From Candidatus Saccharimonadota bacterium (GTDB lineage: Bacteria; Patescibacteriota; Saccharimonadia; Saccharimonadales; Saccharimonadaceae): a stretch of 32,000 bases of DNA. How positions within the stretch are numbered: position 1 is the stretch's first letter; every line of letters begins with the position of its first letter. Under the pieces are notes generated by a model. It saw nothing but the letters and a program-made list of their open reading frames with translations. It ran no database searches and was not told the origin of the DNA. Shown here piece after piece: positions 8,819-25,809 of this stretch. The stretch lies in the NCBI GenBank assembly GCA_017460105.1, contig JAFUBS010000005.1, positions 17,111 to 49,110 of the forward strand. Direction: 5' to 3'. The position numbers and the translations under genes were made by a program.

Positions 8819-8819
8819 C

Positions 8820-9419: not shown

Positions 9420-9446
9420 ATTTTTCTCCTTAAATCCATTATACTC

Positions 9447-9480
9447 TATGTAACGAAAATTGGGTAGTTTTCGTTACATA
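9447..9480. promoter_or_regulatory. Perfect 13-bp inverted repeat (tatgtaacgaaaa-N8-ttttcgttacata) overlapping the abiEi promoter region; candidate AbiEi operator
   Basis: The arms at 9447-9459 and 9468-9480 are exact reverse complements. The minus-strand TATAAT at 9438-9443 lies just downstream, and the AAGGAG RBS is at comp. 9426-9431. Confidence 0.45.
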
Positions 9481-9503
9481 ATAAATTCTAAGAAGCTGGA
9501 TTA

Positions 9504-9512
9504 TGATATAAT
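9504..9512 (+). promoter_or_regulatory. Candidate extended -10 promoter (TGATATAAT) for the GT4 gene
   Basis: The 11-mer tatgatataat at 9502-9512 recurs at 10711-10721 and 26110-26120. It lies 30 nt upstream of the ATG at 9543. Confidence 0.4.
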
Positions 9513-9542
9513 ACGTAAGAGATAACAAAGAATAAACTTAAT

Positions 9543-10691
9543 ATGAAAATATTATTTTCATCTGACGTGTGTGAATACCAAATAAGCGGGGCTCATAATT
9601 CAAACGCTGCATTAAAAGATGAGCTAAGAAAACTGGGGCATGATGTCCGGATGCTTGTTTTATCTCCAAACGGTAAATCATATTTTAAGGATAATAATTA
9701 TTATATTGCGTCTAAGCCGATTCCGGTTTATCCGGGGGCAAGGTTTAGTTTAAAAACACATGATAAGTTGATACAAAAAATCATAGATTGGAAACCCGAT
9801 ATTGTCCATGCTCAATCAGAATTTACCACTAAAATTCTTGCAAATAAAATAATAAAAACCCTCAATATTCCATTTGTGGCAACATGCCATACATTATACG
9901 AAGATTATACTGAATATTTTTGCCCAAACAAGAAACTTGGCAAGAAAATTGTGAAAATTATGAGCAATAAAATCTATAACACTTCGGCGACGCTAATTGT
10001 CCCGTCGGAAAAGGTAAAAGCTGTAATGGAAAAATATGGTATAAAATGCCCGATAGAAATCATTCCTTCCGGTATAGATATGAATATCTATAAGAAAAGA
10101 TTGCCCAAAAAAGAAAAAACGAAAATTTTATCCGAATTAGGTTTGCAAAATTCTAATAAATATTTAGTAACAGTATGCAGATTGGCAGCAGAAAAGAATA
10201 TAGATGAGTTACTTAGGTATTTGCCAGCATTAACAAAAAGAGACAAAGACATAAAACTAATCATAGTGGGAGATGGACCATATAAAACAAAATTAGTTAA
10301 GGAAATAAATAAATTGGATATGAGTGACCATGTGATTTTTACCGGTGCGATTTTGCGAGATGAAATATACAAATATTATCAATTGGGGAATATTTTCGTA
10401 TCAGCATCAACGAGTGAGACGCAAGGGCTAACATATGTAGAGGCATTAGCATCTGGGATGCCCATGGTCTGCAAAAAAGATAAATGTCTAGATAGGATAA
10501 TAGAAAAAGGTAGCAACGGATTTGTTTTTGAAAATGAAGATGATTTTATAGAAGGTGTTGAGTCTATATTAAACAATAAGATATTGATGGATGATATGCA
10601 TAAAAATTCCTTGAAAAAATCCAATAATTTTAGCAAAGAAGAGTTTGGTATAAAAGTCGAAAGATTATATAAAAAAGTATTAGACATATAG
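9543..10691 (+). CDS. Glycosyltransferase family 4 (diacylglycerol/lipid glycosyltransferase-like)
   Basis: 382 aa with the GT-B fold pattern. The N-terminus is MKILFSSD.....GA....AALKDELRKLGHDVRMLV, and the C-terminal EX7E-type motif is SETQGLTYVEALASGMPMVC. Confidence 0.85.
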   Translation: MKILFSSDVCEYQISGAHNSNAALKDELRKLGHDVRMLVLSPNGKSYFKDNNYYIASKPIPVYPGARFSLKTHDKLIQKIIDWKPDIVHAQSEFTTKILANKIIKTLNIPFVATCHTLYEDYTEYFCPNKKLGKKIVKIMSNKIYNTSATLIVPSEKVKAVMEKYGIKCPIEIIPSGIDMNIYKKRLPKKEKTKILSELGLQNSNKYLVTVCRLAAEKNIDELLRYLPALTKRDKDIKLIIVGDGPYKTKLVKEINKLDMSDHVIFTGAILRDEIYKYYQLGNIFVSASTSETQGLTYVEALASGMPMVCKKDKCLDRIIEKGSNGFVFENEDDFIEGVESILNNKILMDDMHKNSLKKSNNFSKEEFGIKVERLYKKVLDI

Positions 10692-10712
10692 CCGTAATTT
10701 TGGCGGCGGGTA

Positions 10713-10721
10713 TGATATAAT
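10713..10721 (+). promoter_or_regulatory. Candidate extended -10 promoter (TGATATAAT) for the leader and lipid operon
   Basis: tatgatataat at 10711-10721 is identical to the 11-mers at 9502 and 26110. Confidence 0.4.
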
Positions 10722-10900
10722 AAAAATAGTTCTAGATTTCAATTTCATGGTAAGTCTACCCCTAACAAGGTAGTGTGAAATATCGAACCCTGCGTGGAGC
10801 ACTCGCTCCAGTTGGCTCGATAGCTTACTGTGAAAAATGAAGTCTAGAACACTCCATGGCGAGTGTTCCACTTGGTTATGGGGATAGTATGGAGAAAATC
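10722..10900 (+). ncRNA. Structured 5' leader (riboswitch-like or attenuator-like, class unknown) ahead of the SDR gene and operon
   Basis: This is a locally GC-richer segment within AT-rich DNA. It has a 13-bp closing helix (10729-10741 with 10838-10850, one G-U) and internal hairpins at 10755-10773 and 10781-10822, the latter including GGAGC-actc-GCTCC at 10796-10809. An 8-bp hairpin gaacactc/gagtgttc lies at 10847-10868. An alternative 12-bp pairing joins 10795-10806 to 10859-10870. These helices share nucleotides, so they cannot all form at once. Confidence 0.3.
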
Positions 10901-11899
10901 ATGAAAAAGATCTCACGTAGAGTATTAGTTACTGGCGCTTATGGATTTTTAGGTAAGTATGTTATTGCCGAATTTTTGGATAACGGATATATTGTCGTTG
11001 CTTTTGGCAGAAATAAGCAAAAAATGTCAGCTTTAAAGCAGCAATATCCGGAAATCGAATTGGCTTACGGAGATTTATGTAGTTCGTCAGATTGCTTAAA
11101 GGCTACGAAAAATATTAATATTGTCGCTCATCTCGGTGCACTTTCAACTGTGTGGGGTAAACGATCCGATTTTTTAAAAACCAATGTCGATGGTACTAAA
11201 AACATCTTGGAAGCCTGTCGTAAAAACAAAGTTAATAAACTCGTGTACATATCATCTCCCAGTATTTATGCTGGCAAATCCGATAAATTAGATATAGACG
11301 AAGATGATTATGATAGAGACAACAAATTGAACTACTATATTGAAAGTAAAATTCTAGCCGAGAAAGCTATTGAGAAATATGATGACATTAATTGGACAAT
11401 ACTTCGCCCACGAGGATTATTTGGAGTAGGTGATACAAGTATCGTTCCTAGACTAATACATGCTAACAAGAAAATAGGATTGCCTTTGTTTGGGGGCGGA
11501 AAGAACTATGTAGATATGACGTGCGTCGAAAATGTCGCATACGCAGTGAGGCTCGCAGCAGAAAGTAAAAAGTCATCACATAAGATTTATAATATCACCA
11601 ATGATGAGCCGCAAGAATTCAAAGGATTGCTGGAGGAATTATTTAAGCAACTTGGCGAAACACCAAGATACAAGAATATTAACTTAAGATTCGCCATCTC
11701 GGCCGCAACCGCCATAGAATCAATTTATAAGGTTTTTCATATTTATAAAGAGCCACCAATTACTAAATATACTATCTGCACTTTGGGCTATAGCCAGACT
11801 TTAAATATTGACAAAGCGAAGCGAGATTTGGGATATAAACCAAAGATGACATTAAGCGAAGGAATCGAGAAATATGCAACCAGCCATCAAAAGTGTTAA
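10901..11899 (+). CDS. Extended SDR, NAD-dependent epimerase/dehydratase / 3-beta-HSD family
   Basis: Rossmann motif VLVTGAYGFLGKYV and catalytic YxxxK in NYYIESKILAEK. I chose the start at 10901 because GGAG lies 6 nt upstream. The track start at 10856 falls inside the leader hairpin. Confidence 0.85.
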   Translation: MKKISRRVLVTGAYGFLGKYVIAEFLDNGYIVVAFGRNKQKMSALKQQYPEIELAYGDLCSSSDCLKATKNINIVAHLGALSTVWGKRSDFLKTNVDGTKNILEACRKNKVNKLVYISSPSIYAGKSDKLDIDEDDYDRDNKLNYYIESKILAEKAIEKYDDINWTILRPRGLFGVGDTSIVPRLIHANKKIGLPLFGGGKNYVDMTCVENVAYAVRLAAESKKSSHKIYNITNDEPQEFKGLLEELFKQLGETPRYKNINLRFAISAATAIESIYKVFHIYKEPPITKYTICTLGYSQTLNIDKAKRDLGYKPKMTLSEGIEKYATSHQKC

Positions 11900-12668
11900 G
11901 TATTTTAGTTGTGGATATTGTACAAATAACCTCGGTCGAGTTTTTAAGGGTATGCGTGGCGAAAAAAGAAAATTCCCAGCCGGAGCATTTTTGATTGAGC
12001 ACGCTAAGCATGGGCTGATTCTTTTTGATACAGGTTATTCTGCTAATATTTGTAAAACTGGTTTTGTTGGTAGAGCTTATAATTTCTTTAATCCCACATT
12101 AGTAGAAGAAAATGACGAGCTAAAGTATCAACTTAGTAAAATCGGGACTCGGCCGGAGGATATTAAGACAATCATACTGTCGCATTTGCACCCAGACCAT
12201 ATTGGTGGGCTTAGGAGTTTTGGCAAGGCGAATTTTATTGTCTCAAAAGAAACTATAAATACATACAAAAATAGAAGGATACGAGATTTAATAATGCAGC
12301 GTTTCTTTCCTGCCGATTTTGAAGATAGGGCTAACGTAATTTCAGATAAAATGATGGTAACTGAAGTTCTTGGTGCACTGAAAGGTTATGACTTGTTTAA
12401 TGACGGCAGTTTAATTTTATTAAAGCTAGGTGGTCATGCTAGCGGTCAATTGGGCGCTCTAATAGATAATAAGATTTTGTTAGCAGCAGACTCATGTTGG
12501 GGGAATGATTTAATTGATCTATCGTACCATATGAAGTTTCCCGCATCATTAATACAGGACAATATGAGAGAATATCGTAATACCCTAGATAACTTAAAGT
12601 TATTAAAGAAAAAAGGTATTAATCTGGTATTTAGTCATGATGCAAATAATAAAAAGGAGCTACTATGA
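11874..12668 (+). CDS. MBL-fold metallo-hydrolase (possible thioesterase or lactonase)
   Basis: The HxHxDH motif is in ILSHLHPDHIGGL, with later H/D ligands (GGHASGQ, AADSCW, FSHD). 264 aa. Confidence 0.8.
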   Translation: MQPAIKSVKYFSCGYCTNNLGRVFKGMRGEKRKFPAGAFLIEHAKHGLILFDTGYSANICKTGFVGRAYNFFNPTLVEENDELKYQLSKIGTRPEDIKTIILSHLHPDHIGGLRSFGKANFIVSKETINTYKNRRIRDLIMQRFFPADFEDRANVISDKMMVTEVLGALKGYDLFNDGSLILLKLGGHASGQLGALIDNKILLAADSCWGNDLIDLSYHMKFPASLIQDNMREYRNTLDNLKLLKKKGINLVFSHDANNKKELL

Positions 12669-13942
12669 ATAAAGGCTTAATTCTTAAAACATTTATTCGT
12701 GCCCGCTATTTTCACAAATTTAAAAGTCGAAGAAGGCTGGAAAAATATCAGCAAAAGCAGACAAAAAAACAACTAGATTTCTTCGAACACCATTCCCCGT
12801 ATTTCCAAAAGTTTAGTGGCAAAACTTTTGAAGAGTTGCCGTATATGAATAAAAAAGTCATGATGGATAATTTTGACAGAATGAATACAGCCGGAATATC
12901 AAAGGACGATGCCCTTAAGCTAGCTATTAATAGCGAAAAAAGCCGTGATTTTTCAGAAAAGCTGAATGGCTACTCTGTTGGGCTGTCATCTGGGACAAGT
13001 GGACACCGTGGGGTGTTTGTCCTTAGCGACATTGAGATCGCAACGTGGGTGGGCGGCATGATGGCAAAAATGCTACCGAAAGGTAAGATCTTTGGGACCA
13101 AAGTTGCGTTTTTCCTTCGGGCCGACAATAACTTATATGAGTCATCAAATAGTAAGATACTTAAATTTGAGTTTTTTGACATCTTAAAGCCAATGGAACA
13201 AAATATAATAAAATTACAGGAGTTTCAGCCGACAATTTTGGTCGCACCGCCATCTGTACTGCTCATACTAGCGGAGACTGCCAAAGTCAAGAAGCTGAGC
13301 ATTAATCCAGTAAGGATTATATCAGTTGCAGAAGTATTAACAGAAAAAGACGAACAATATTTGAAAAGGGTTTTCAAGCAAAAGATAATATACCAAGTAT
13401 ATCAATGCACCGAAGGGTTCCTTGGATACACTTGCGAGTATGGCTCCCTACATCTCAACGAGGATGTTGTAGTGGTTGAAAAGGAGTATCTTGACGACAC
13501 AAGATTTACTCCGGTTATCACGGACTTTGTTAGGACGACTCAACCTATTGTCAAATATCGATTAAACGATATTCTGGTTGAAGATAGAAGGCCATGTAAA
13601 TGCGGGACATCTATGACAAGGCTTAAAAAGATCGAAGGAAGGATGGATGATGTTTTTGAATTTGATGGCGTAAATGATAGAACGATAAAAGTATTCCCTG
13701 ATTTTATTTCCAGAGTGGTACTCTACGTGCCCAAAATAAAGAATTATAGAGTAGTACAAGAATCATCCAAAAAAGTCATTTTTTATCTAGATAATATAGA
13801 CATTGAAAATCAAAGACTAATCAAAGAAGAGTTAAAAACTCTCGCTAAGAGAATGCGTTTCAAAATGCCAGCCACTACTTTTAAGAAATATGAATCTGAT
13901 TTTAGTAAAAAGATGAAGCGAGTGGAAAGGATAAAAAAATGA
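12665..13942 (+). CDS. Adenylate-forming enzyme, F390-synthetase / PaaK / LuxE-like family
   Basis: Motif GLSSGTSGHRGVFVLS is the SSGTTG-type adenylation loop, and the size and layout are PaaK-like. AAGGAG lies upstream, and there is an ATGA overlap with the MBL gene. Confidence 0.7.
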   Translation: MNKGLILKTFIRARYFHKFKSRRRLEKYQQKQTKKQLDFFEHHSPYFQKFSGKTFEELPYMNKKVMMDNFDRMNTAGISKDDALKLAINSEKSRDFSEKLNGYSVGLSSGTSGHRGVFVLSDIEIATWVGGMMAKMLPKGKIFGTKVAFFLRADNNLYESSNSKILKFEFFDILKPMEQNIIKLQEFQPTILVAPPSVLLILAETAKVKKLSINPVRIISVAEVLTEKDEQYLKRVFKQKIIYQVYQCTEGFLGYTCEYGSLHLNEDVVVVEKEYLDDTRFTPVITDFVRTTQPIVKYRLNDILVEDRRPCKCGTSMTRLKKIEGRMDDVFEFDGVNDRTIKVFPDFISRVVLYVPKIKNYRVVQESSKKVIFYLDNIDIENQRLIKEELKTLAKRMRFKMPATTFKKYESDFSKKMKRVERIKK

Positions 13943-14871
13943 GAAATTGTAAAATATCGGGCTATGGATATTATTTACCAAAAAACATAGTGACATTTGG
14001 TAATCAAATTAGGTACAGAGCTTCAGGCAAGGAAAATCAACTTTTTATGGCGACAAATGCCGCTAAAAAGGCGATGAAAAATGCTAGGCTAAAACCAGAA
14101 AATATTGATTTGATAATAGCCGCTTCGGCAGTAGGTATCCAACCAATCCCCTGTACGGCAAGCTTAATTCATGAACAAATAATGAACGACTACAACATTC
14201 CTGCTATGGATATTAATACCACTTGTACTAGCTTTATAACCGCACTGGATATTGCATCGTATCTGATTGCAGCTGGAACATATAAAAATATTTTAATTGT
14301 ATCAAGCGAGCTGGCTAGCCCTGGGCTTCCGAAAGATAAAAAAGAAATCTATGAACTATTCTCTGACGGAGCCGCGGCAATTGTACTTTCTCATACTAAC
14401 GATACGAAACGAGGTGTAATAGCCTCTAAACAGTGCACTTGGTCAGAAAGCGCGCACGCGACAGAAATTGTAGGTGGATTAACCGGACTTAATGCCACTA
14501 AAATGAACAATAAAAACCGAGACAAATATTACTTTAAAATGGAGGGGCTCGATATATTACGTGCATGCACGCGAAAATTACCAAAAATGTTTGACGATTT
14601 TAAAAAAGAGACTAATCTATCATTGGACGATGTAGACTTAGTAATCCCACATCAGGCGAGTAAGGCATTGCCCTTGATTATGAAAAAATTGGGAGTACCA
14701 GAAGAAAAATACGTTAATCGTGTTGATAACTTTGGTAATCAAGTGTCCGTTTCGGTTCCATTCATGTTATGCAAAATGCTAGAAGAAGGAAAAATCCATA
14801 CTAGTGACAAAGTAATGCTATGTGGGACTGCAGCAGGGTTAACATCTAATATATTATTAATGGAGATATAA
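13939..14871 (+). CDS. 3-oxoacyl-ACP synthase III-like (KAS III / FabH family) condensing enzyme
   Basis: The Cys-His-Asn triad context is intact: DINTTCTSFITALDIAS, VIPHQASKAL, FGNQVSVSVPFML. 310 aa. Confidence 0.85.
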   Translation: MRNCKISGYGYYLPKNIVTFGNQIRYRASGKENQLFMATNAAKKAMKNARLKPENIDLIIAASAVGIQPIPCTASLIHEQIMNDYNIPAMDINTTCTSFITALDIASYLIAAGTYKNILIVSSELASPGLPKDKKEIYELFSDGAAAIVLSHTNDTKRGVIASKQCTWSESAHATEIVGGLTGLNATKMNNKNRDKYYFKMEGLDILRACTRKLPKMFDDFKKETNLSLDDVDLVIPHQASKALPLIMKKLGVPEEKYVNRVDNFGNQVSVSVPFMLCKMLEEGKIHTSDKVMLCGTAAGLTSNILLMEI

Positions 14872-14872
14872 A

Positions 14873-15109
14873 ATGTTGGAAGAATTTAAAAAGTTTCTAG
14901 ATGAGGAATTGGGCATAGACGATGATATTACATTAGAAACTAGCCTAAGAGACGATTTGATGATTGATAGCTTGGCGACTACGCAATTAGTGCTCTCACT
15001 TGAAGAAAAATACAATATAAAAGTAGAGCAAAGCGAGCTCGCTAAACTAAAGACCGTAAAGAATTGTTTGGATTTGCTAGCGGAGAAAGGTATAGAAAGT
15101 GCCAATTGA
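14873..15109 (+). CDS. Acyl carrier protein
   Basis: 78 aa and acidic, with the phosphopantetheine attachment motif DSL in DDLMIDSLATTQLVLSLEE. Confidence 0.85.
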   Translation: MLEEFKKFLDEELGIDDDITLETSLRDDLMIDSLATTQLVLSLEEKYNIKVEQSELAKLKTVKNCLDLLAEKGIESAN

Positions 15110-15464
15110 TAAACTGAAGAAGATTTTAGCCGATTTCGATAGTTCTGAAGCAACCGAATTTGAGTACGAGGATGCCGATTTTAGAGTTTCTATAAAGAAG
15201 AATGGTCCTAAAACGGATCAAGAAAAGACTGACTATTCAGATAAACATATTTTGTCGCCGCTGGTAGGCACTTATTATGATGTATCCCCAACCATACAAA
15301 TAAACGAAAGAGTTAAAGAAGGTCAGTCTTTATGTATCATTGAAAGCATGAAAATAATGAATAAAATTTGTGCACCGGCTGATTTGATTATTAGAAAAAC
15401 GTATTTTGAAAACGGAGAGAGTGTAGAATTTGGCTCTAAGCTTTTTGAGGTTGATTATATATGA
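15099..15464 (+). CDS. accB: Biotin carboxyl carrier protein (short form)
   Basis: GTG start with GGAGAAAGG upstream. The biotinyl-lysine motif is CIIESMKIMNKI (E[A/S]MKxM) in a C-terminal lipoyl-like fold. Confidence 0.85.
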   Translation: MPIDKLKKILADFDSSEATEFEYEDADFRVSIKKNGPKTDQEKTDYSDKHILSPLVGTYYDVSPTIQINERVKEGQSLCIIESMKIMNKICAPADLIIRKTYFENGESVEFGSKLFEVDYI

Positions 15465-16723
15465 TTCAAAAAGTACTAATTGCAAATAGAGGAGAAATAG
15501 CAGTAAGAATAATACAGACCTGCCGTATTTTGGGTATTAGAACGGTTGTGGCATACTCAAAATGCGATAAAGATACTATGGCGGTATTCTTGGCTGATGA
15601 GGCGATTTGTATTGGTGATAGCAGTCCATCGGATTCGTATCTCAACATTCCAGCAATTCTAGAGGCGGCAAAAAATACGGGATGTGATTCTTTGCATCCA
15701 GGGTATGGCTTTTTAAGCGAAAATGATGAGTTTGCAAAACGAGCCCATGAAAGTGGAATTATATTTATTGGGCCATCAAGCAACATTTTAGAAAAAACTG
15801 CAAATAAATTCCGAATGAAAGAAACGGCAAGAAAATTAGGAATTCCAGTTATCCCATCAGCTGATGAAGATAAATGTCCACTAATGATTAAATCAAGCTA
15901 TGGTGGTGGCGGAAAAGGCATAAAAATAGTAAAAAACAGAGGGGATTTCGACTATTGTCTCAAATCTGCCAAACTAAGTTTGAATACTGGGTTTAGTGGA
16001 GACAATTTCTTCTTGGAACAAATAATAGATTTATATAAGCATATAGATATACAGTTTGTTGCGGACAAATTCGGCAAAATTTCTATTCTACCGGCCAGAG
16101 ACTGCTCCGTGCAATCACATTATCAGAAGGTTATCGAAGAAACCCCAGTGTCTAATATACCAAAAGAGCTATTGGAAAAAATGGAACAAGACGCTGTCAA
16201 ACTTATAAAAGAGGTTGGATTTGATAATGTCGGGACGATTGAGTTTTTGGTGGATAAACAGATGAACTATTATTTTCTTGAAATAAATTCTAGATTGCAA
16301 GTCGAACATACTGTAACAGAAGAGGCTACGGGTATAGATCTTGTTGAACAGCAGATCAGAATAGCTTCAGGTCAGAAGAATCGTCTTCCTATGAAAGTGA
16401 GTGCTAAAAAATGTGCCATCGAATGCAGGCTATCTGCTAAGGATAATGGCGAGCTTAATATATTTAGCTTACCTACGGGAAAAGATGTGCGAATAGACAC
16501 ATATATTTATCAAGGATACCGAATAAAGCCATATTATGATCCGCTGATTGCAAAAATAATAGTAAGCGACAAGGAAAGGCGGAGGGCGATCTCAAAGATG
16601 AAACTCGCACTTGATGAAATAATTATTTTAGGTGCTCATACTAACGTTGATGAACTCTACGAGACTATTAGCCGAGAAGATTATATAGTGGGTAGCTATA
16701 GCTATTTTGGAGAGAATGAGTAA
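15461..16723 (+). CDS. accC: Biotin carboxylase
   Basis: KVLIANRGEIAVRIIQTCRILGI, the ATP-grasp loop KSSYGGGGKGIKIV, and EINSRLQVEHTVTE. At 420 aa it is somewhat shorter than the usual ~450. Confidence 0.92.
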   Translation: MIQKVLIANRGEIAVRIIQTCRILGIRTVVAYSKCDKDTMAVFLADEAICIGDSSPSDSYLNIPAILEAAKNTGCDSLHPGYGFLSENDEFAKRAHESGIIFIGPSSNILEKTANKFRMKETARKLGIPVIPSADEDKCPLMIKSSYGGGGKGIKIVKNRGDFDYCLKSAKLSLNTGFSGDNFFLEQIIDLYKHIDIQFVADKFGKISILPARDCSVQSHYQKVIEETPVSNIPKELLEKMEQDAVKLIKEVGFDNVGTIEFLVDKQMNYYFLEINSRLQVEHTVTEEATGIDLVEQQIRIASGQKNRLPMKVSAKKCAIECRLSAKDNGELNIFSLPTGKDVRIDTYIYQGYRIKPYYDPLIAKIIVSDKERRRAISKMKLALDEIIILGAHTNVDELYETISREDYIVGSYSYFGENE

Positions 16724-18345: not shown

Positions 18346-19130
18346 AACGAGCGTTTATTTTTACTGGACAAGGAGAAGGACTGGGAATTCATAATCCTCA
18401 GCTAGCCACTTTTTGGATGAGCATTGCTTTAGCGAAAATTTTAATCGCAAATGATATTAAGCCAGATGCGATAGCAGGTCTTAGCCTTGGGGAATATGCG
18501 TGTTTTGTTGTTGCGGATGTTTTTAACGTTGAAGAGCTAGAGCAAATCCTAATATTTAGGCAAAAAATAATGGATGATGCATTAAGAGGCTTAAATACTT
18601 CTATGGTGGCGTGCCTCGGTATGCCGGCAAAAGAAATTGAGAAAATGGCAACGAGGTGCGGTCTTTTTGTTACAAATTATAATTCACCTATGCAAACCGT
18701 AGTCGGAGGAGAAAAGACAAGAATAAAGGAGTTTAAGGATGCTTTCCGGCAATTTAAAAACGCATCGACAATTGATTTGCGAGTAATTGGCGCCTTCCAT
18801 TCCCCATATTTAAATAGTGCCAGTGAAAAGATGAGGAGATTTTTAGATAGCTTTTGCGAGAAAACGCCTACTATACCGATTTATTGTAACTTAACTGGCA
18901 AGAAAATAATCAAAGATGTCAGAGGAGCGATGGTGAAGCATTTAGTAAGCCCAGTACAATTCCAAAGCATTATTGAAAATATGTTGGATGACTCAGTAGA
19001 TGAATTTATCAGCATCGGCATTGGAACTACGCCGGTAAATCTAATTCGTCAAATATACAAAGGAAAGGGGGTTCGAGCTAGAGTAAGGAAAGTTGAGTCG
19101 CTAGAAGATATTGAAAGGATTATAAAATGA
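18342..19130 (+). CDS. fabD: Malonyl-CoA:ACP transacylase (short form)
   Basis: FIFTGQGEG, the active-site AGLSLGEYACF (GxSxG) and GAFHSPYL. 262 aa. Confidence 0.85.
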   Translation: MKRAFIFTGQGEGLGIHNPQLATFWMSIALAKILIANDIKPDAIAGLSLGEYACFVVADVFNVEELEQILIFRQKIMDDALRGLNTSMVACLGMPAKEIEKMATRCGLFVTNYNSPMQTVVGGEKTRIKEFKDAFRQFKNASTIDLRVIGAFHSPYLNSASEKMRRFLDSFCEKTPTIPIYCNLTGKKIIKDVRGAMVKHLVSPVQFQSIIENMLDDSVDEFISIGIGTTPVNLIRQIYKGKGVRARVRKVESLEDIERIIK

Positions 19131-20353
19131 GACGAGTGGTAGTAACTGGGTTAGGTGCGATTACTCCTATTGGCAATAATGCAAAAGACTTCTGGAATAG
19201 CCTAAAGTCTGGCGAAGATGGCATTAGTGTCTTAGATACGGAAGAATTCGCCGAGTCGCCCGTAAAGTTAGCGGCAACTGTCAAAGATTTAGACTTATCA
19301 TCCTTGCCAAAAAGAGATACAAAATTCGATTCGAGATTTACAAATTTTGCGAGAATTGCCGGACGTGAAGCATGGAATGATTCCGGACTAGATATGGCTT
19401 TAGAAGATGCCAGGAAGGTCGGAGTTTATATTTCTACAAGCATTGGTGGACCAGAGACATTGAGTGACGGTGTTAGACAATTAGACACAAAAGGCGCAGC
19501 CAGAATTTCACCATATTTCCTACAATCAGTTTTGCCAAATACGGCCGCAGCAAAAGTATCAATAGATTTAGGTGCTAAAGGGAGTAGTATGTGCCATGTA
19601 GCGGCCTGCGCAAGTAGTGGCATATCAATAGGTGAAGCATTTCTAAAAATCAGAGATGGAGATAATAATATTTTCGTTGCTGGAGCAGCAGATGCATCTA
19701 TAACTCCACTAACCCTCGCCGGCTTCGCCGCAATGAGGGCTATATATACTGGCGAAGACAAAAAATGCGCTTCAATTCCTTTCAATAAAAAGCGTAGTGG
19801 TTTTCTGATAGGAGAGGGTGCTGGTGTTCTAGTTTTGGAAGAGTTATCTCACGCGCTAAAAAGAGAGGCTAAGATATATGCCGAGATTGTAGGATACGCT
19901 AATAATTCGGATGCTTTTAATATGGTATCACCAGACTACGAAGGTCTATCGAGCAAGGATGCTATGTTGGGTGCTATTGCCTGCGCCGAGATTAATCCTG
20001 ACAATATCGGGTATATCAATGCGCATGGCACATCTACGATATTGGGCGACAAAACTGAAGCAAAAGCCATCCGCGAGATATGGAGTAAGGAATGTCCACC
20101 CGTGTCGTCGATTAAGTCACAAATCGGGCACTTGCTTAGCGCTAGCGGTGCAGTAGAGGCCATAGCTACGATATTAATGCTGGGGAGCGGAATTATACCT
20201 GGTAGTACTTACAAGTTGGATCTAGAAGACGACTGTGTCTTGAATATCTCTGAAAAAGAGCGGTTGACCAACGCTAACTATGCTCTATCTAATTCATTTG
20301 GTTTCGGCGGCCATAATGCCTGTCTGGTATTTAAGAAATGGAGCGCGCAATGA
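19127..20353 (+). CDS. fabF: 3-oxoacyl-ACP synthase II (KAS II)
   Basis: RRVVVTGLGAITPIGN, and a catalytic Cys-His-His triad in AACASSG, NAHGTST and GHLLSASG. It ends with FGFGGHNACLVFKK. Confidence 0.9.
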   Translation: MRRVVVTGLGAITPIGNNAKDFWNSLKSGEDGISVLDTEEFAESPVKLAATVKDLDLSSLPKRDTKFDSRFTNFARIAGREAWNDSGLDMALEDARKVGVYISTSIGGPETLSDGVRQLDTKGAARISPYFLQSVLPNTAAAKVSIDLGAKGSSMCHVAACASSGISIGEAFLKIRDGDNNIFVAGAADASITPLTLAGFAAMRAIYTGEDKKCASIPFNKKRSGFLIGEGAGVLVLEELSHALKREAKIYAEIVGYANNSDAFNMVSPDYEGLSSKDAMLGAIACAEINPDNIGYINAHGTSTILGDKTEAKAIREIWSKECPPVSSIKSQIGHLLSASGAVEAIATILMLGSGIIPGSTYKLDLEDDCVLNISEKERLTNANYALSNSFGFGGHNACLVFKKWSAQ

Positions 20354-20874
20354 AAAGAATTGTTCTAGAAAGCATCAATAGCACCAATGATCATGCAGAA
20401 AAAATAGCAGACAAAACGCATGAAAATATTCTAATCATTGCAAAATCCCAAACGAATGGGCGCGGGCAGTTCGATAGGAAATGGTTTTCCGAACCAAATA
20501 AAAGTATTACTCTTAGTTTCCTGTTGAAAAACAAAAGTGGAGACAAAAAGTTAAGGAAAGATGCTTTAGAACACATACCAGTTATCATTTCTAAAAAGCT
20601 AAATGAACTATACGGCGTAAATTCCAAAGTGGTTTTACCGAATGATATCAAGATTAATAATAAAAAAGTCTGTGGTATTTTGATTGAGGCGCATTTTAAG
20701 GCAGATACACTAGAATATGTCGTAGTAGGAGTAGGGATTAATCTTAATAATGATGATTTTCCGGATGACATAAAGTCGATTGCGACATCTATCAAATTAG
20801 AGATAAAAAAAGATTCAGATGCGGACATTCTCACGGATAAATTAGAGGGGGCCATAGAGGGACTATATGACTAG
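20350..20874 (+). CDS. birA: Biotin-[acetyl-CoA-carboxylase] ligase, minimal catalytic-domain form
   Basis: GRGQFDRKW (GRGRxGRxW-type) and LPNDIKINNKKVCGILIE. There is no HTH domain and the C-terminus is very short. I chose the start at 20350 because it makes an ATGA overlap with fabF and has GGAG 6 nt upstream. The track start is 20338. Confidence 0.8.
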   Translation: MKRIVLESINSTNDHAEKIADKTHENILIIAKSQTNGRGQFDRKWFSEPNKSITLSFLLKNKSGDKKLRKDALEHIPVIISKKLNELYGVNSKVVLPNDIKINNKKVCGILIEAHFKADTLEYVVVGVGINLNNDDFPDDIKSIATSIKLEIKKDSDADILTDKLEGAIEGLYD

Positions 20875-22435
20875 GGCGAATAATTTCTCTGCGATGATTT
20901 CTGAAAGTGTCCAAAAATATGGGCAGAAAACTTTCTTTGTCGGCGAAAAGTTTTCAAAGACCTATGAGGATTTTTATAACGATATCCAAAGTTTGTCAGG
21001 TTACTTTATGGATAATAGTTTAGCCGGTAAAAAGATTGGTATTTATGCGTCTAATTCCTATAATTGGCTATTACTATTCTTTGCCGTGGCTGCTGGCGTT
21101 GGAACAATAGTGCCACTTGATAAAGAGCTGCCAGAAAAAGAGCTCGCATTATCTGCTAAGCGTATCGGTTTGGATTTTATTTTCTATGATAATTTAACGA
21201 AAGACAAAGTAAATTGTCTTCCTAAAAATATCCATGCAGAACATATAAATAAAATAGACGATATCATCAGGGAGACGCCAAATCGTAAAGCCAAAAAAGC
21301 GTCGAAACGCGAATGCGCCGCACTATTTCTAACTTCCGGCACAACGTCCAAATCCAAAATTGTTATGCTATCCGAAAAGAATCTAGTTTCCTGTGCCTAT
21401 TCTTCAGCCACCGCTTTTAAGCTAAAATCCACGGATAGGTATTATACAATTTTGCCACTCCATCATACGCTTACTCTAATGTGTGCAGTGTTGGTGCCTA
21501 TTACCAATGGATGCTCGATTTGTTTTAGCAAAAATATTAAAGACATGCAGAGAGAAATGTGCTTTTACCAGCCAACTGCACTAGTTGTGGTACCGAGGCT
21601 GCTCGAATACATTATGAATAATATAAAACTCACAGCTAAGAAAACACACAAAGAAAAGGCTCTGCAAAAACTAATTTTTATATCAAGAGGAGCGAGACTA
21701 TTACATATTGATATAAGAAAGCCCTTGTTCTCTAGTATTCACGCCAGATTTGGAGGCAAGATTCGCATGATCGCTTGTGGTGGAGCAGAGCTAGACCAAA
21801 GGGTTTTTAACTTCCTGGACGATTTAGGATTTAATATTTACCAGGGATACGGGTTGACGGAGAGCTCACCGATTTTAACCATTCGCGGAATGTTTGTAAA
21901 AAGTAAAATTGGCGTCGGTAGGCCGCTAAATGGCGTACATCTAAAAATAGCCAATCCAGATGCGGCTGGTATTGGAGAAATTATTGCCAAAGCTCCACAA
22001 GTTATGTTGGGTTATTATGATGATAAAAAAGCTACAGAAGATGTTTTAAAGAATGGTTGGCTCTACACGGGTGATTTAGGCAGGATAAGAAATGATGGTA
22101 ATCTAGAAGTAGTTGGTAGAAAGAAAAACGTCATTGTGACCAGCAACGGTAAAAACATCTATCCAGAGGAACTAGAAACACTGATTAATTATAGCAACAT
22201 AGTTAAAGAGAGTATCGTAAATGGAGTTCAAAAGAAATCCGGCTTACAAATTATCGCTACGATAGTACCAGAAGATAAAAACCGGAAAGATAAGTCTCTC
22301 GACAGCAAAATAAGTAAACTTATTAAAGATATAAATGCAGAATTACCGGATTATAAACGTATCAATAAATACATAATCAAGAAAGATGAATTCGAGAAAA
22401 CCACTACATTAAAGATAAAGAGAGGAGCAAAATGA
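20867..22435 (+). CDS. AMP-dependent acyl-CoA/acyl-ACP synthetase (FadD/Aas-like ANL enzyme)
   Basis: ANL motifs LFLTSGTTSKSKIVMLS, YQGYGLTESSP, GWLYTGDLG and ...TLKIKR. Confidence 0.85.
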   Translation: MTRANNFSAMISESVQKYGQKTFFVGEKFSKTYEDFYNDIQSLSGYFMDNSLAGKKIGIYASNSYNWLLLFFAVAAGVGTIVPLDKELPEKELALSAKRIGLDFIFYDNLTKDKVNCLPKNIHAEHINKIDDIIRETPNRKAKKASKRECAALFLTSGTTSKSKIVMLSEKNLVSCAYSSATAFKLKSTDRYYTILPLHHTLTLMCAVLVPITNGCSICFSKNIKDMQREMCFYQPTALVVVPRLLEYIMNNIKLTAKKTHKEKALQKLIFISRGARLLHIDIRKPLFSSIHARFGGKIRMIACGGAELDQRVFNFLDDLGFNIYQGYGLTESSPILTIRGMFVKSKIGVGRPLNGVHLKIANPDAAGIGEIIAKAPQVMLGYYDDKKATEDVLKNGWLYTGDLGRIRNDGNLEVVGRKKNVIVTSNGKNIYPEELETLINYSNIVKESIVNGVQKKSGLQIIATIVPEDKNRKDKSLDSKISKLIKDINAELPDYKRINKYIIKKDEFEKTTTLKIKRGAK

Positions 22436-23523
22436 ATAAACATAGGTTTGCCGTCCTCATACCAGCACGTAATGAAAGCGCAGTAATTAAGCAATTATTA
22501 GACTCACTGCATTCACAAGAGTATCCTCAAAAAGATATCGATATTTTTGTTATTGCCGATAACTGCACTGATGATACGGCGAAAATAGCCGAGCAGAACG
22601 GTGCGATAGTTTATCTACGAAAGAACAACAAGCAAATTGGAAAAGGATATGCTTTAGATTATCTACTTAATAAAATTTGGAAAAATTATCCTAATCGCAG
22701 ATACGATGCCTATATTATTTTTGATGCCGACAATCTAGTAGACAAAAATTTCATTACAGAAATCAATAAGGTTTATTCAGATGGGTACGATATAGTATCA
22801 CCATACCGAAATTCAAAAAACTATGGTTCGAGTTGGTTATCTGCAACTAGTAGTATCTACTTCTTGTATCATTCAAAATTATTTCGTCACAGATTTAATA
22901 ATGGTATTAATTGTGCGACGCTGGGAACTGGTTTCCTGATTAGCCATAACGTTATAGAAAGATATAACGGATGGAAATTCTTTACACTTGGAGAAGATGC
23001 CGAGCTTTCAATGCGTGCAGTAAAAGACGGTTTCAAAATTGGATACGCTGACGAGGCGATTATTTACGACGAGCAACCCGTCACATTTATAGATTTTTGG
23101 AGACAGAGACTACGCTGGGTTAGGGGGCACTTGCAGGTAGCCAAAATCTATGGTAATTCGCCCGCTACCACGACATTCGATCCATTAGCTATCGCGACAA
23201 TCTTAGAATTTTTATCACTATTATCCATACTAGCCATTTCTATCTTTAGCATAACTACCGCAGCAAACTTATGGCCATATATACTCCTGGCAATAACTAT
23301 GCTATATATACCAACCTTTATTATAGGGATACGTACTATAATGACCGAAAAGAGTAAAATTCATGCAAAAACCATAACAAAATACACCTATGTAATATTT
23401 TTCCCACTGATGATCCTCCTGTTTATATTTGCCGCCATCATGGCATTGTTTAGCTGTGATAGAAAAGAATGGCACAGCATAAGCCACAAAGGTAAGTATT
23501 TAAACGAGCTAGATAAAGCATGA
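22432..23523 (+). CDS. Glycosyltransferase family 2 with a C-terminal multi-pass membrane domain (processive-synthase-like)
   Basis: FAVLIPARNES...VIADNCTDDT, DxD in IFDADN, and a QxxRW-type RQRLRW. The C-terminal ~120 aa is hydrophobic (several predicted TM helices). Confidence 0.85.
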   Translation: MNKHRFAVLIPARNESAVIKQLLDSLHSQEYPQKDIDIFVIADNCTDDTAKIAEQNGAIVYLRKNNKQIGKGYALDYLLNKIWKNYPNRRYDAYIIFDADNLVDKNFITEINKVYSDGYDIVSPYRNSKNYGSSWLSATSSIYFLYHSKLFRHRFNNGINCATLGTGFLISHNVIERYNGWKFFTLGEDAELSMRAVKDGFKIGYADEAIIYDEQPVTFIDFWRQRLRWVRGHLQVAKIYGNSPATTTFDPLAIATILEFLSLLSILAISIFSITTAANLWPYILLAITMLYIPTFIIGIRTIMTEKSKIHAKTITKYTYVIFFPLMILLFIFAAIMALFSCDRKEWHSISHKGKYLNELDKA

Positions 23524-24680
23524 AAAAAATAGTCTTCTTCTCTACTCCCGCTTTTGGACATATTCTTGCAGAAGAGCCAATTATCAGTGCGTTGGTCAAG
23601 AAAGGTTATTCCGTAGACTGGTATTCGTCAAAACGTTTTAGCGGAATTATTAATAAGAGTGGCGCCAATTTTATTCCGTATAAAGCTGATTTTGATTCAT
23701 ATTACGATCTGGCCACAGTAACAAAAGATTTCTATATTTTAATGGAAACGATAATAAGTATAAGCCGCGATTGTTTTTTGGAATACAATGAAAAAATACG
23801 ACAAAAAAAGCCAGACCTGATTCTCTACGATTCAATGTGTGCCTTTGCAAAAAATATTGCCAAATCTCAAAATATTCAGTCTGTATGCTTATGTTCGACA
23901 ATGGCGTTCAATCTTTTAACATCAATTGGCACATGCTTAGCATTTCCTATTGTGAAGTTGGGGGTCACTCGTTGCTTTGATATCTTGAAAATAATTATAA
24001 CAGAACGACGATTCCGAAAACAGCATAATCTACCCCACTTAAGCCTTATCGATTTATATATTAATCGCGGAGATCTGACGTTGGTTTTGTCGCCGCGAGA
24101 ATTTCAGCCATTTGCTTGGTCCTTTCCGAAAAGTTTCAAATTTGTTGGTGCTACCGTAAAAGACAAGCACTGTATGCTCAGTCGTAACTATGGCAAATAT
24201 GATATTTATATTTCTATGGGTAGCATTTTTACAGAAAATGAAATGCTACTAAGGCGAATCTGCGACTCCGAAGAATTCAAAAATAAAAAAACGATTATTA
24301 ATGTCGGAAAATTGAAAATCAAAAACAATCATAGAAATATAAAACTTGTAGAATACACCGATCAGCTTTCATTACTAAAAAGCACCGGCCTATTTATTAA
24401 TCACGGTGGCATTGGCAGCGTCTACGATAGTATCTACATGCAGGTTCCGCAAATTTGCATACCTCAACAGGAAGAACAGCGTATGGTAGCAAAGAATGTT
24501 CATAAAAAACGGGTCGGAATTTATGTTAAGCATTTCAACCCGAAAAAAATTAATATATACATGAAAAAGCTCGAAAAAAATAGCCAGAATATTTCAAAAT
24601 ATTCTACACTATTAAGAAATACCGACGGAACGGAAAACGCCGTATCAGAAATAGAAAAAATAATCGGAAACACAAAATGA
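23520..24680 (+). CDS. Glycosyltransferase family 1, MGT/UDP-glycosyltransferase-like
   Basis: The N-terminus is KIVFFSTPAFGHI. The C-terminal nucleotide-sugar signature is FINHGGIGSVYDSIYMQVPQICIPQQEEQ. Confidence 0.75.
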   Translation: MKKIVFFSTPAFGHILAEEPIISALVKKGYSVDWYSSKRFSGIINKSGANFIPYKADFDSYYDLATVTKDFYILMETIISISRDCFLEYNEKIRQKKPDLILYDSMCAFAKNIAKSQNIQSVCLCSTMAFNLLTSIGTCLAFPIVKLGVTRCFDILKIIITERRFRKQHNLPHLSLIDLYINRGDLTLVLSPREFQPFAWSFPKSFKFVGATVKDKHCMLSRNYGKYDIYISMGSIFTENEMLLRRICDSEEFKNKKTIINVGKLKIKNNHRNIKLVEYTDQLSLLKSTGLFINHGGIGSVYDSIYMQVPQICIPQQEEQRMVAKNVHKKRVGIYVKHFNPKKINIYMKKLEKNSQNISKYSTLLRNTDGTENAVSEIEKIIGNTK

Positions 24681-25201
24681 AAATTTATTTTATAAAAACT
24701 GACAATAATGCAGAAAAACTTTCTAGTGTATTATTTCCCTTAATCTATAAGAGGGAAGCCAAAGAGAGCATCGACATCCCATATCAGCAAATCAAACGGA
24801 ATCAATATGGTAAGCCGTTGCCCATACAGGGCATTTATTACAATATTAGCCATACTAAAAAGATGTGGTGTATTGTATTTTGTGACAGTCAGTGTGGAAT
24901 CGATATTGAGAAATCGAAAGATATTGACGAACGTATTAAAAGAAGAATCTTGTCTAAAAACGAAAAAATTATAGGGGGGAATATCCTGAATAATTGGGTC
25001 ATAAAAGAAGCTTATGGCAAATATCTAGGCCTTGGTCTTAATATTGATTTTCGCGATATATCCACAAACGATATTATGGAGCATGAAAATGTCACCAATC
25101 TATCTACAAACGACTATGTTTGTTTTGTTGTTTCAAAAATACCATCCGATATTGAAGTGACTTATTTAAAAGAAGAGGATTTAGTCAAAGCTGGTTGTTG
25201 A
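24677..25201 (+). CDS. 4'-phosphopantetheinyl transferase, Sfp-type (short)
   Basis: QYGKPL, NISHT, CGIDIEK and WVIKEAYGKYLGLG are the PPTase motifs. 174 aa. It is the last gene of the overlapping chain. Confidence 0.8.
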   Translation: MKIYFIKTDNNAEKLSSVLFPLIYKREAKESIDIPYQQIKRNQYGKPLPIQGIYYNISHTKKMWCIVFCDSQCGIDIEKSKDIDERIKRRILSKNEKIIGGNILNNWVIKEAYGKYLGLGLNIDFRDISTNDIMEHENVTNLSTNDYVCFVVSKIPSDIEVTYLKEEDLVKAGC

Positions 25202-25367
25202 TAAAAGCATTCAATGCTTCTCTGATCCCACATTCTGGGCAAATCTTGGTTTTGTTGTCTTTGCGCGATAGCGCAGGGTAATCTAAATAATATTTTCCGC
25301 ATTTAGGGCATTTGCGGCGCTTCTGAGCGGCTTTTGAGCTAGAGTAGGGCGTTTTACTGTATTTCAT
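25185..25367 (-). CDS. Small zinc-ribbon protein (60 aa)
   Basis: Two CxxC pairs (CPKCG...CPECG) and a basic N-terminus. It has an ATGA overlap with the upstream 99-aa ORF, and it overlaps the PPTase 3' end by 17 nt in convergent orientation. Confidence 0.55.
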   Translation of the reverse strand: MKYSKTPYSSSKAAQKRRKCPKCGKYYLDYPALSRKDNKTKICPECGIREALNAFINNQL

Positions 25368-25663
25368 AAATCCACCGAGCAGACACGCGTTAAACCGAAT
25401 TTATACCCTAATTCCTCCCACATATTATCGGGCGCATCCTCTCCTAAGACTCGCCAGACCGGGTAATTATAATCAAGCATAATTTTTGCAACATCTTTTG
25501 GATCCACCATTAGTTGGCAATAGTAGCCAGCCGTAGTTTCACCTTCAATTATGATTGGTTCACTTTCTTCGGCCTTCAATACTTCTTCCAAGCGTTTATA
25601 TTCGACCGCAATAGCTTCATTTACGAGCTTAACGGCAGCGACTAATTTATCATCTTTTTTCAT
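25364..25663 (-). CDS. Hypothetical protein (99 aa)
   Basis: An acidic ORF translationally coupled to the zinc-ribbon gene. I recognise no family. Confidence 0.5.
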   Translation of the reverse strand: MKKDDKLVAAVKLVNEAIAVEYKRLEEVLKAEESEPIIIEGETTAGYYCQLMVDPKDVAKIMLDYNYPVWRVLGEDAPDNMWEELGYKFGLTRVCSVDL

Positions 25664-25728
25664 AATGTTTGTATTTAACCTTATTTCCCAAAAATTACAA
25701 GTTAATACTTAACCAAAAGCGTAATTAG

Positions 25729-25809
25729 TGATATAATTAAAATAGTTTCAAGTTCATAGGCGCTCTTGGAACTCAAATGTTGCGGTGATTTATATCAACC
25801 GCATTTTTT
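25729..25809 (+). promoter_or_regulatory. Extended -10 promoter (TGATATAAT, 25729-25737) followed ~45 nt later by a hairpin plus T-run (25781-25809); candidate short sRNA or attenuator
   Basis: tgcggt-N11-accgca stem (25781-25786 / 25798-25803) followed by tttttt. A direct repeat aaattgcg occurs twice at ~25823-25842, just downstream. Confidence 0.3.

Follow-up and report, generated by a model that had tools for sequence, protein, structure and literature searches.

The stretch analysed here, called the window below, comprises 32,000 nucleotides of contig JAFUBS010000005.1 (positions 17,111 to 49,110 of the forward strand) from the Candidatus Saccharimonadota assembly GCA_017460105.1 and lies within ENA scaffold XIEF21-1_scaffold_400. 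Its central feature is a gene cluster at positions 9543-25201, for which the listing of open reading frames (ORFs) revealed 16 tightly packed, co-directional ORFs on the + strand. A first-pass annotation had described seventeen co-directional genes; the common orientation held, the count did not. Neighbouring genes overlap or abut, and since the sole gap measures 165 bp (10691-10856), there is no space for a further gene. Profile searches with Pfam and NCBIfam reproduced every gene assignment of that annotation, including acetyl-CoA carboxylase (ACC), the ketosynthases (KS), acyl carrier protein (ACP), and the 4'-phosphopantetheinyl transferase (PPTase), with intact catalytic residues. The GC content of the cluster is 0.33-0.40 (about 0.36) compared to 0.45-0.55 in the flanks, which carry rpsU-adk-map-ftsA-ftsZ and genes for FISUMP-domain surface proteins. 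Adk and the 672-aa protein of the flanks as well as the cluster proteins are deposited at NCBI as MBQ8156544-570 under 'Candidatus Saccharibacteria bacterium', and the closest relatives of the TIGR02304 ligase of the cluster come from metagenome-assembled genomes (MAGs) of Saccharibacteria, e.g., RGIG5791 from sheep ileum. The host is, as the first-pass annotation had suspected, Candidatus Saccharibacteria, represented by a genome from the sheep or ruminant gut. The genes of the cluster are:

9543-10691, + strand: glycosyltransferase (GT) of family GT4 (Pfam Glycos_transf_1 and Glyco_transf_4)
10856-11899, + strand: core gene 1, extended short-chain dehydrogenase/reductase (SDR) of the 3-beta-HSD family, OleD/NSDHL-like (Pfam 3Beta_HSD and Epimerase)
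11874-12668, + strand: core gene 2, hydrolase of the metallo-beta-lactamase (MBL) fold, lactonase-like, HLHPDH motif (Pfam Lactamase_B)
12665-13942, + strand: core gene 3, adenylate-forming enzyme of TIGR02304 ('F390 synthetase-related') with a PaaK-family fold (NCBIfam, AlphaFold)
13939-14871, + strand: core gene 4, KAS III (FabH-like) condensing enzyme (Pfam ACP_syn_III and ACP_syn_III_C)
14873-15109, + strand: dedicated ACP with DSL serine (Pfam PP-binding)
15099-15464, + strand: AccB with SMKIM motif (Pfam Biotin_lipoyl)
15461-16723, + strand: AccC, short form (Pfam Biotin_carb_N/CPSase_L_D2/Biotin_carb_C)
16723-18345, + strand: fused AccD-AccA (Pfam ACCA and Carboxyl_trans)
18342-19130, + strand: FabD-like malonyl-CoA:ACP transacylase (Pfam Acyl_transf_1)
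19127-20353, + strand: FabF, KAS II (PRK07314, 444 bits, cutoff 387)
20338-20874, + strand: BirA, biotin-protein ligase, catalytic domain only (TIGR00121, 127 bits, cutoff 83)
20867-22435, + strand: second adenylate-forming enzyme, FadD/MenE/malonyl-CoA-synthetase-like (Pfam AMP-binding, 197 bits)
22432-23523, + strand: membrane-anchored GT2 of the QxxRW type (DAD, ED, and RQRLRW motifs, three C-terminal transmembrane helices)
23520-24680, + strand: MGT-like GT1 (profile matches)
24677-25201, + strand: Sfp-like PPTase (Pfam ACPS, 34.5 bits, cutoff 25)

Two related loci (L004 and L006) carry copies that are 98-99% identical, and comparison with them revealed ratios of nonsynonymous to synonymous substitution (dN/dS) of 0.06-0.26 for nearly all genes and zero stop codons. 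The cluster genes are under purifying selection, and this, together with the lack of stop codons and the intact motifs, identifies them as real coding sequence and not chance ORFs. As judged by profiles and motifs, the cluster possesses the malonyl-ACP supply and condensing half of type II fatty-acid synthesis (FAS), i.e., homologues of ACC, FabD, KAS III (FabH), KAS II (FabF), and ACP with catalytic residues intact, whereas the reductive cycle (FabG, FabZ/FabA, enoyl-ACP reductase) is missing. In Pfam and NCBIfam searches, none of the 16 proteins showed an adh_short-type FabG, a FabA/Z hotdog, or an enoyl-reductase domain, and reductive FAS enzymes were likewise absent from every cluster variant examined, related loci included. 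The earlier statements that the cluster lacks FabG, FabZ/FabA, and FabI/K/L/V and is no ordinary fab operon were thus borne out. Further differences from type II FAS are the fusion of AccD and AccA, the shortened AccC and FabD, the presence of its own BirA and Sfp-type PPTase, of GTs, two ANL ligases, an MBL hydrolase, and an extended SDR, and the location on a mobile island. Judging from its gene content, the cluster is most likely specialised-metabolite cargo and not a fatty-acid synthase.

While the first-pass annotation had regarded condensation without reduction as the organising principle of the cluster, comparison with other genomes pointed to a different one, namely the four genes for SDR, MBL hydrolase, TIGR02304 ligase, and KAS III. 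In a scan with one genome per GTDB species, 523 loci with a relative of the TIGR02304 protein were found, of which 80 were kept, and the order SDR-MBL-ligase-KAS III is collinear in all 80 wherever the contig permits; the SDR, present in nearly all related loci, is absent only at contig cut-offs. Most of the kept loci belong to Streptococcus (mitis, oralis, infantis, pseudopneumoniae, a pneumoniae strain, salivarius, parasanguinis, and australis), and further hosts are Stomatobaculum, Lachnospiraceae, Fusobacterium, Aerococcaceae, and Erysipelotrichaceae. In Streptococcus, the genes form an operon GT1-SDR-MBL-ligase-KAS III between the gene for a DUF3642 lipoprotein and that for cardiolipin synthase, and the same five genes occur in Aerococcaceae. 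On this comparison, the four genes appear as an orphan core to which the supply genes were added, and this core also resides in streptococci and other Firmicutes, the former being proficient in FAS. Full-text literature searches returned no description of the core cassette, and for an ACC/ACP/KS cluster in Saccharibacteria they yielded nothing beyond general remarks on the absence of fatty-acid synthesis from the lineage.

Among the core proteins, the SDR is a candidate beta-keto reductase according to its family matches. Its best NCBIfam families were two OleD (2-alkyl-3-oxoalkanoate reductase) models, matched over the full length with 206 and 195 bits (E-values of 1e-61 and 3e-57) and followed by HpnA (1e-31), though with a cutoff of 580 bits it falls below OleD proper; the top match in the PDB was human NSDHL (6jkg). 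The MBL hydrolase matched AttM, AhlS, and 4-pyridoxolactonase in NCBIfam, each below the cutoff, and the GcL and AiiB lactonases in the PDB, with the HxHxDH motif intact in the alignment, while PqsE was not among its PDB matches at E<=1e-3. It may be regarded as a candidate release enzyme acting on a lactone or thioester. The ligase belongs to TIGR02304, with a score of 535 bits over residues 6-422 of 425 (cutoff 251.9), and its motifs SSGTSG, YQCTEG, and EGRxDD are invariant in the alignment. Sequence and profile searches led to PaaK-type enzymes only, and a Foldseek search with the AlphaFold model (pLDDT 87.7) revealed BT_0428, PaaK1/2, the ester-forming AjiA1/NatL2/ClxA, and HCL (2-hydroxyisobutyryl-CoA ligase) as top matches. 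The fold search confirmed the PaaK family only; the members of this family with solved structures are activators of aryl or short acids. In the KAS III, the Cys-His-Asn triad is intact. It matched PRK07204 with 281 bits (below the cutoff) and, in the PDB, FabH (2ebd, 1e-39), MxnB (1e-37), CorB (9e-37), PqsD (3e-20), BioZ (1e-17), and OleA (1e-13), as well as PqsC. Matches to the StlD/DarB families were weak (50 bits). The match to BioZ, a 3-oxopimeloyl-ACP synthase, together with BirA had raised the idea of pimelate (biotin) synthesis; this was rejected because the match is weak compared to that of FabH and because BirA is explained by AccB.

For the supply genes, all Pfam domains of a multi-subunit AccABCD-type ACC exceeded the gathering thresholds, while the NCBIfam accC, accD, and accA models matched strongly but below their equivalog cutoffs, which indicates divergent subunits. 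AccD (residues 32-270) and AccA (284-537) form a single protein of 540 aa. AccC has 420 aa instead of the usual c. 447 aa, a short form common to all close Saccharibacteria relatives. Outside Saccharibacteria, its nearest relatives are cluster-linked Firmicutes copies (47-53% identity), several of them on one contig with a ligase homologue, followed by housekeeping Clostridia AccC (45-47%). The supply module therefore moved together with the cluster instead of being put together in Saccharibacteria. FabD revealed an internal deletion of about 45 aa after GQG and GLSLG in place of GHSLG, though alignment to E. coli FabD showed that GQG, the serine, Arg117, and His201 are kept. A shortened FabD (254 aa) was also found in locus L002, while Firmicutes FabD is full length (308-312 aa); the dN/dS of the FabD of the window, 0.4-0.8, lies above that of the other cluster genes. 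FabF has an intact Cys-His-His triad (motifs ACAS, HGTST, and GHLLSASG) and matched TIGR03150 with 444 bits, slightly below the cutoff of 494. BirA, with 178 aa, is devoid of the usual C-terminal domain, and in the PPTase the motifs GID and WVIKEAYGK (WxxKEA) are intact. The FadD-like ligase gave only generic ANL matches in NCBIfam and the PDB, malonyl-CoA synthetase included. A mycolate-like Pks13/FadD32/AccD4 scheme was discarded, as the carboxyltransferase is of the AccD/AccA and not the AccD4/5 type and the relatives are Firmicutes. As for the GTs, the closest family of GT4 is the alpha-monoglucosyl-diacylglycerol synthase Mgs (NCBIfam MGlcDAGSynMgs, 215 bits, cutoff 400, hence below it), GT2 showed a weak match to GT21, and a GT1 similar to that of the window stands beside the core in Aerococcaceae, Streptococcus, Stomatobaculum, L008, and L010.

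The related loci differ in what accompanies the core. Some Lachnospiraceae carry the core with ACP and FabF, and locus L012 carries it with AccDA, FabD, and FabF. In three Firmicutes loci of 25% GC (L008, L010, and L011) and in GCA_016648615.1 (389-kb contig), it is joined by ACP, AccB, AccC, AccDA, FabD, FabF, and GT1, with GT4, BirA, and PPTase variably present. The three loci have about 25% GC throughout, and the label Bacteroidaceae of L011 is probably a binning error. These low-GC gut Firmicutes may lack FAS II themselves, which would fit self-provisioning. A second Saccharibacteria lineage (L022 and L025) harbors PPTase, core, ACP, FabD, FabF, and FadD, but no ACC. In L022, this cluster (5527-19984) reads alpha/beta hydrolase, VTT/DedA, GT2, PPTase, core, ACP, FabD, FabF, and FadD, and shows no GC contrast to its flanks; genes for a large serine recombinase and for the large subunit of a phage terminase come directly after it. 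In L004 and L006, GT2-GT1-PPTase is replaced after the FadD-like gene by a 380-aa HxxxDG protein of the condensation/acyltransferase type, which in L002 is fused to an adenylation domain (945 aa), probably likewise in L016 of Lachnospiraceae (976 aa); the coordinates are 19768-20910 in L006, 19643 to the end in L002, and 5263-8193 in L016. In these loci, the product may thus be tailored differently, through esterification or amidation instead of glycosylation.

The bare core in FAS-proficient hosts and the stepwise addition of ACP, FabF, FabD, ACC, BirA, and PPTase elsewhere imply that the core consumes malonyl-ACP and acyl-ACP. Streptococci would draw both from their housekeeping FAS II. Fatty-acid synthesis is reported absent from Saccharibacteria (PMC11659515; PMC12455944), and we propose that the full supply of holo-ACP and malonyl-ACP is carried along in the window because the lineage lacks FAS II. 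The first-pass annotation had gone further and read the self-sufficient packaging as a sign of a recipient from the candidate phyla radiation (CPR); since the same packaging already exists in the low-GC Firmicutes (L008, L010, L011, and GCA_016648615.1), it is not by itself evidence of CPR adaptation. When the four core proteins were concatenated and a neighbour-joining tree was calculated without support values, the window, L004, L006, L005, and L002 formed one clade inside Firmicutes, with 56-63% identity to the nearest Firmicutes copies, and the second Saccharibacteria group was placed elsewhere. Transfer into Saccharibacteria has likely taken place at least twice. In Streptococcus pneumoniae strain 291 (L040), the five-gene operon lies at 6980-13888, while reference pneumococci (TIGR4 SP_0198/SP_0199) presumably do not have it, which would make the operon an accessory insertion in strain 291.

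Regarding the surroundings of the cluster, the extent of 9543-25201 given in the first-pass annotation was correct for the biosynthetic genes, but the whole unit is larger and includes an AbiE pair and a recombinase gene. By its junctions and gene content, window 6964-27736 is an integrative island of 20.8 kb; a large serine recombinase is predicted to have integrated it within a surface-protein gene. Features outside the cluster are:

6107-6889, - strand: C-terminal part of the split surface-protein gene, 260-aa FISUMP ORF (FISUMP domain)
6959-6963, no strand: left junction (attL), TGCGC; reads GTACC-TGCGC/GTAATC, and the island begins with GTAATCTAAATC
7267-7707, + strand: 146-aa island ORF (no Pfam, NCBIfam, or PADLOC match)
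7829-8818, - strand: AbiEii toxin (PADLOC 329 bits; Pfam AbiEii)
8820-9419, - strand: AbiEi antitoxin (PADLOC 208 bits; Pfam DUF6088)
25185-25663, - strand: two small island ORFs of 60 and 99 aa (no family match above noise; CxxC...CxxC in the 60-aa ORF)
26128-27558, + strand: large serine recombinase at the right island end (Pfam Resolvase, Recombinase, and Zn_ribbon_recom)
27555-29573, - strand: N-terminal part of the split surface-protein gene, residues 1 to ~612 and a 60-aa island-encoded tail
27732-27736, no strand: right junction (attR), TGCGC followed by chromosomal CAGAAGTC; reads GGTCTGG-TGCGC/CAGAAGTC

An Adk identical to that of the window is encoded on seven other metagenome contigs. 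In three of them (L089, L090, and L091), the homologue of window ~29009-27734 is joined directly to that of 6963-6741 and 6964-27731 is missing, so that the island is absent there. The empty site (attB) reads GTACCTACGCCAGAAGTC, TGCGC is common to both junctions, and the predicted attP would be GGTCTGGTGCGC joined to GTAATCTAAATC. One gene is split by the island. In L090, it is intact as a single ORF that corresponds to residues 431-613 of the 672-aa ORF (93%), with residues 1-260 of the 260-aa FISUMP ORF following (63%). The C-terminal fragment retains its own ATG, and if the recombinase excises the island, the surface-protein gene would be restored as in skin or fdxN-type elements. The recombinase gene ends 178 bp from the right junction, and its NCBIfam matches to XisF and CcrB are below the cutoff; with recombinase domains at its end, an empty site, and defined junctions, the element has the make-up of a serine-recombinase integrative element. 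Like SCCmec Ccr, XisF fdxN, and skin-type elements, it combines a terminal large serine recombinase with an insertion inside a coding gene, a short common core at the junctions, and an intact target in relatives, whereas its recombinase lies far below the XisF and Ccr cutoffs and its cargo is a biosynthetic cluster with AbiE.

The left 15.5 kb of the island (6959-22436), which extend to the FadD-like gene and include it, are found again on the Saccharibacteria MAG contigs L004 and L006, where nucleotide identities are 98.0% and 99.1%. Their left flanks differ from that of the window and from each other, though both end with TGGTGCGC before GTAATC, so that the same left part of the island was found in three insertion contexts. 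Because of these contexts, the empty site in close relatives, and the terminal serine recombinase, the cluster is horizontally acquired AT-rich cargo, in agreement with the earlier proposal. The AbiEii/AbiEi genes constitute a type IV toxin-antitoxin or abortive-infection pair at the left island end, conserved in L004 and L006, and are probably a stabilisation or defence module of the element. The 146-aa ORF shows no amino-acid changes in L004 and L006. Neither the ligase profile nor the recombinase detected a relative in IMG/VR, and the label prophage was therefore not applied, despite the terminase beside the recombinase in L022. In Rfam and tRNA scans, only a tRNA-Asp outside the island was detected.

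Based on these data, we favour a self-provisioned condensation pathway outside FAS, carried as island cargo and leading to a glycosylated beta-keto/hydroxy-acyl or lactone product, and consider this reading slightly short of evenly probable. The reaction order, substrates, and product that we infer for it would be as follows. The PaaK-family TIGR02304 ligase would activate a small carboxylic acid, which KAS III would condense with malonyl-ACP; the OleD/NSDHL-like SDR would reduce the beta-keto group, and the lactonase-like MBL hydrolase would release or cyclise the product. FabF may add one more C2 unit on the dedicated ACP. GT1 and possibly the membrane GT2 would glycosylate the resulting aglycone, which could be a beta-hydroxy acid, a beta-keto acid, or a lactone formed from one of these. 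The glycosylated beta-keto/hydroxy-acyl or polyketide-like lipid predicted in the first-pass annotation would accordingly be a plausible product. AccB, AccC, AccD-AccA, BirA, FabD, ACP, and PPTase would supply holo-ACP and malonyl-ACP, with the second, FadD-like ligase also aboard. The combination of ligase, KAS III, and MBL hydrolase parallels PqsA/PqsD/PqsE. As in the Pqs system and MBL-thioesterase polyketides, where an aryl-acid ligase, a KAS III using a malonyl thioester, and an MBL hydrolase releasing a beta-keto acid cooperate, the core would combine three such types of enzyme, but its ligase is PaaK-like and not PqsA-like, the MBL hydrolase is closest to acyl-homoserine lactone lactonases with no match to PqsE, PqsBC is missing, and a reductase and GTs are added. 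Aromatic type II polyketide synthase (PKS) clusters, e.g., of the jadomycin type, embed their own supply of ACC, ACP, malonyl-CoA:ACP transacylase, and PPTase, the same principle as in the cluster here. In contrast to them, it has no KS-alpha/chain-length factor pair, cyclases, or aromatases, and its hosts are Firmicutes and Saccharibacteria instead of actinomycetes. The only KAS I/II-type gene belongs to the FabF subfamily with an active-site Cys, and no second KS-like ORF was found in the cluster, which places it outside type II PKS.

Several points weigh against this pathway. No characterised member of the core cassette was found in the literature, and substrates and product are guesses. 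The MBL hydrolase appears to resemble lactonases and not PqsE or known MBL thioesterases. OleD, the closest family of the SDR, acts on free 2-alkyl-3-oxo acids, and this speaks for a product of head-to-head condensation. Without a chain-length factor, a genuine FabF is not expected to extend a beta-keto chain, the model fixes no role for the FadD-like ligase, and GT4 may simply make membrane glucosyl-diacylglycerol. The main rival is a head-to-head condensation of the Ole or pyrone type by the core, which we regard as unlikely, though the most serious alternative. Here, the FadD-like ligase would load a scavenged fatty acid onto ACP, and FabF with malonyl-ACP would yield a beta-ketoacyl-ACP, to which KAS III would join a second acyl group by Claisen condensation without decarboxylation; either a 2-alkyl-3-oxo acid or an alpha-pyrone would result. 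This product would then be reduced by the OleD-like SDR, the TIGR02304 ligase would activate the carboxylate like OleC to form a beta-lactone or ester, the MBL hydrolase would act on the lactone, and the GTs would glycosylate. With SDR, MBL, ligase, and KAS III, the core comprises the same four reaction types as OleABCD and the lipstatin/nocardiolactone-type LstA-D systems, i.e., an OleD-like SDR, a lactone-type hydrolase, an ANL enzyme, and a thiolase-fold condensing enzyme, which map one to one onto OleD, OleB, OleC, and OleA. This scheme also gives each supply gene, FabF and FadD included, a role without reductive FAS enzymes; the two OleD models are clearly the best NCBIfam matches of the SDR (1e-61 and 3e-57 against 1e-31), lactonases are the closest families of the MBL hydrolase, and the PaaK-like NatL2, AjiA1, and ClxA among the fold matches form esters straight from adenylates. 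For KAS III, the pyrone-forming MxnB and CorB match almost as well as FabH (1e-37 against 1e-39), and the KAS III enzymes that form pyrones or resorcinols (MxnB, CorB, PpyS; DarB/StlD) act on a beta-ketoacyl thioester, for which FabF-type enzymes are a possible source. Yet the similarity to FabH is equally high, the StlD/DarB matches are weak (50 bits), a DarA-type partner is missing, and OleA structures match far less well than FabH (1e-13 against 1e-39). Similarly, the SDR stays far below the OleD cutoff (206 against 580 bits), the TIGR02304 enzyme is homologous to OleC at the superfamily level only, with no OleC model among the top matches of either ligase, and the cluster contains no alpha/beta-hydrolase OleB. 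Its KAS III is thus FabH-like, its ligase of the PaaK family, and its hydrolase an MBL, and in contrast to OleABCD it is associated with malonyl-ACP supply and GTs, so that it does not belong to OleABCD as such. To our knowledge, streptococci do not make long-chain olefins or pyrones, which we also count against head-to-head condensation. In silico, the two schemes are not discriminated.

A partial FAS II that restores or extends the supply of membrane fatty acids, with the SDR and enzymes not recognised as such, or else genes in other parts of the genome, carrying out the reductive steps and the GTs forming membrane glycolipids such as glucosyl-diacylglycerol, appears improbable to us. FabD, FabH, FabF, ACP, and ACC are indeed closest to genuine FAS II families, a monoglucosyl-diacylglycerol synthase is the best match of GT4, and a long-chain acyl-CoA ligase module is reported to be common in mammal-associated Saccharibacteria (PMC11659515). 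But no cluster variant examined showed a FabG, FabZ/A, or enoyl-reductase domain, FAS-proficient streptococci keep the core as an accessory operon, from which it follows that the core is not a FAS substitute, and the accessory genes (GTs, the HxxxDG condensation-like protein, adenylation domains) vary in the fashion of natural-product clusters. It is less probable still, and very unlikely in our view, that assembly or binning placed Firmicutes DNA between Saccharibacteria flanks. Although the GC content of the cluster (0.36) is unlike that of the flanks and the relatives outside Saccharibacteria are Firmicutes, the arrangement with its junctions was assembled independently in the 48.6-kb ENA scaffold and a 64-kb NCBI contig, the junctions are precise with a common TGCGC, and the target gene is cleanly split and intact in relatives. 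In addition, group-A clusters occur in no fewer than five Saccharibacteria MAGs, where the contigs reach 123-176 kb, and the Saccharibacteria copies form their own clade distinct from the nearest Firmicutes.

Returning to the self-provisioned pathway that we favour, the core may represent an undescribed pathway that parallels Ole, Pqs, or pyrone chemistry with enzymes from other families and yields glycosylated lactones or hydroxy-acyl lipids of a new class, common to oral and gut streptococci, Lachnospiraceae, Fusobacterium, and Saccharibacteria, though we hold this broader proposal to be doubtful. Saccharibacteria and other CPR bacteria are the textbook organisms without fatty-acid or lipid-chain biosynthesis. 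If the pathway exists, a FAS-less CPR epibiont would owe its only carbon-chain-building lipid chemistry to serine-recombinase islands with their own malonyl-ACP supply, plausibly for interaction at the surface or with the host. While self-provisioned biosynthetic clusters on genomic islands are of a known kind, the one described here contains an orphan core, the chemistry of which may prove to be new. A mobile element provides a Saccharibacteria host with ACC, holo-ACP, malonyl-ACP, and two ketosynthases, with the genes under purifying selection and tied to an orphan pathway instead of FAS. Metabolic reconstructions that score ACC, FabD, and FabF as present could misread such genes as partial FAS. 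Our analysis also draws attention to an operon of four or five genes, conserved but so far unstudied, in the Streptococcus mitis group, which is naturally competent. Finally, a serine-recombinase island with AbiE moves a biosynthetic cluster of 13-16 genes between Saccharibacteria genomes and disrupts a surface-protein gene, which bears on how epibionts gain accessory functions.

Some further features were noted in and around the island. A promoter and terminator scan of window 6900-26200 gave counts equal to those of shuffled sequence and was uninformative. The sole strong terminator-like structure within the island is a hairpin with a 13-bp stem and T-runs on both strands at 26044-26073, between the small ORFs and the recombinase gene. 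The tRNA-Asp(GTC) gene (29718-29794, - strand) lies about 2 kb beyond the right junction and is not the integration site. Just outside the left end, a Fic-domain gene (5088-6005, - strand) was assigned by PADLOC to the candidate defence family PDC-S04 (357 bits). This gene is itself an indel, as window ~5070-6037 has no counterpart in L089, L090, and L091, which are otherwise 96-97% identical there.

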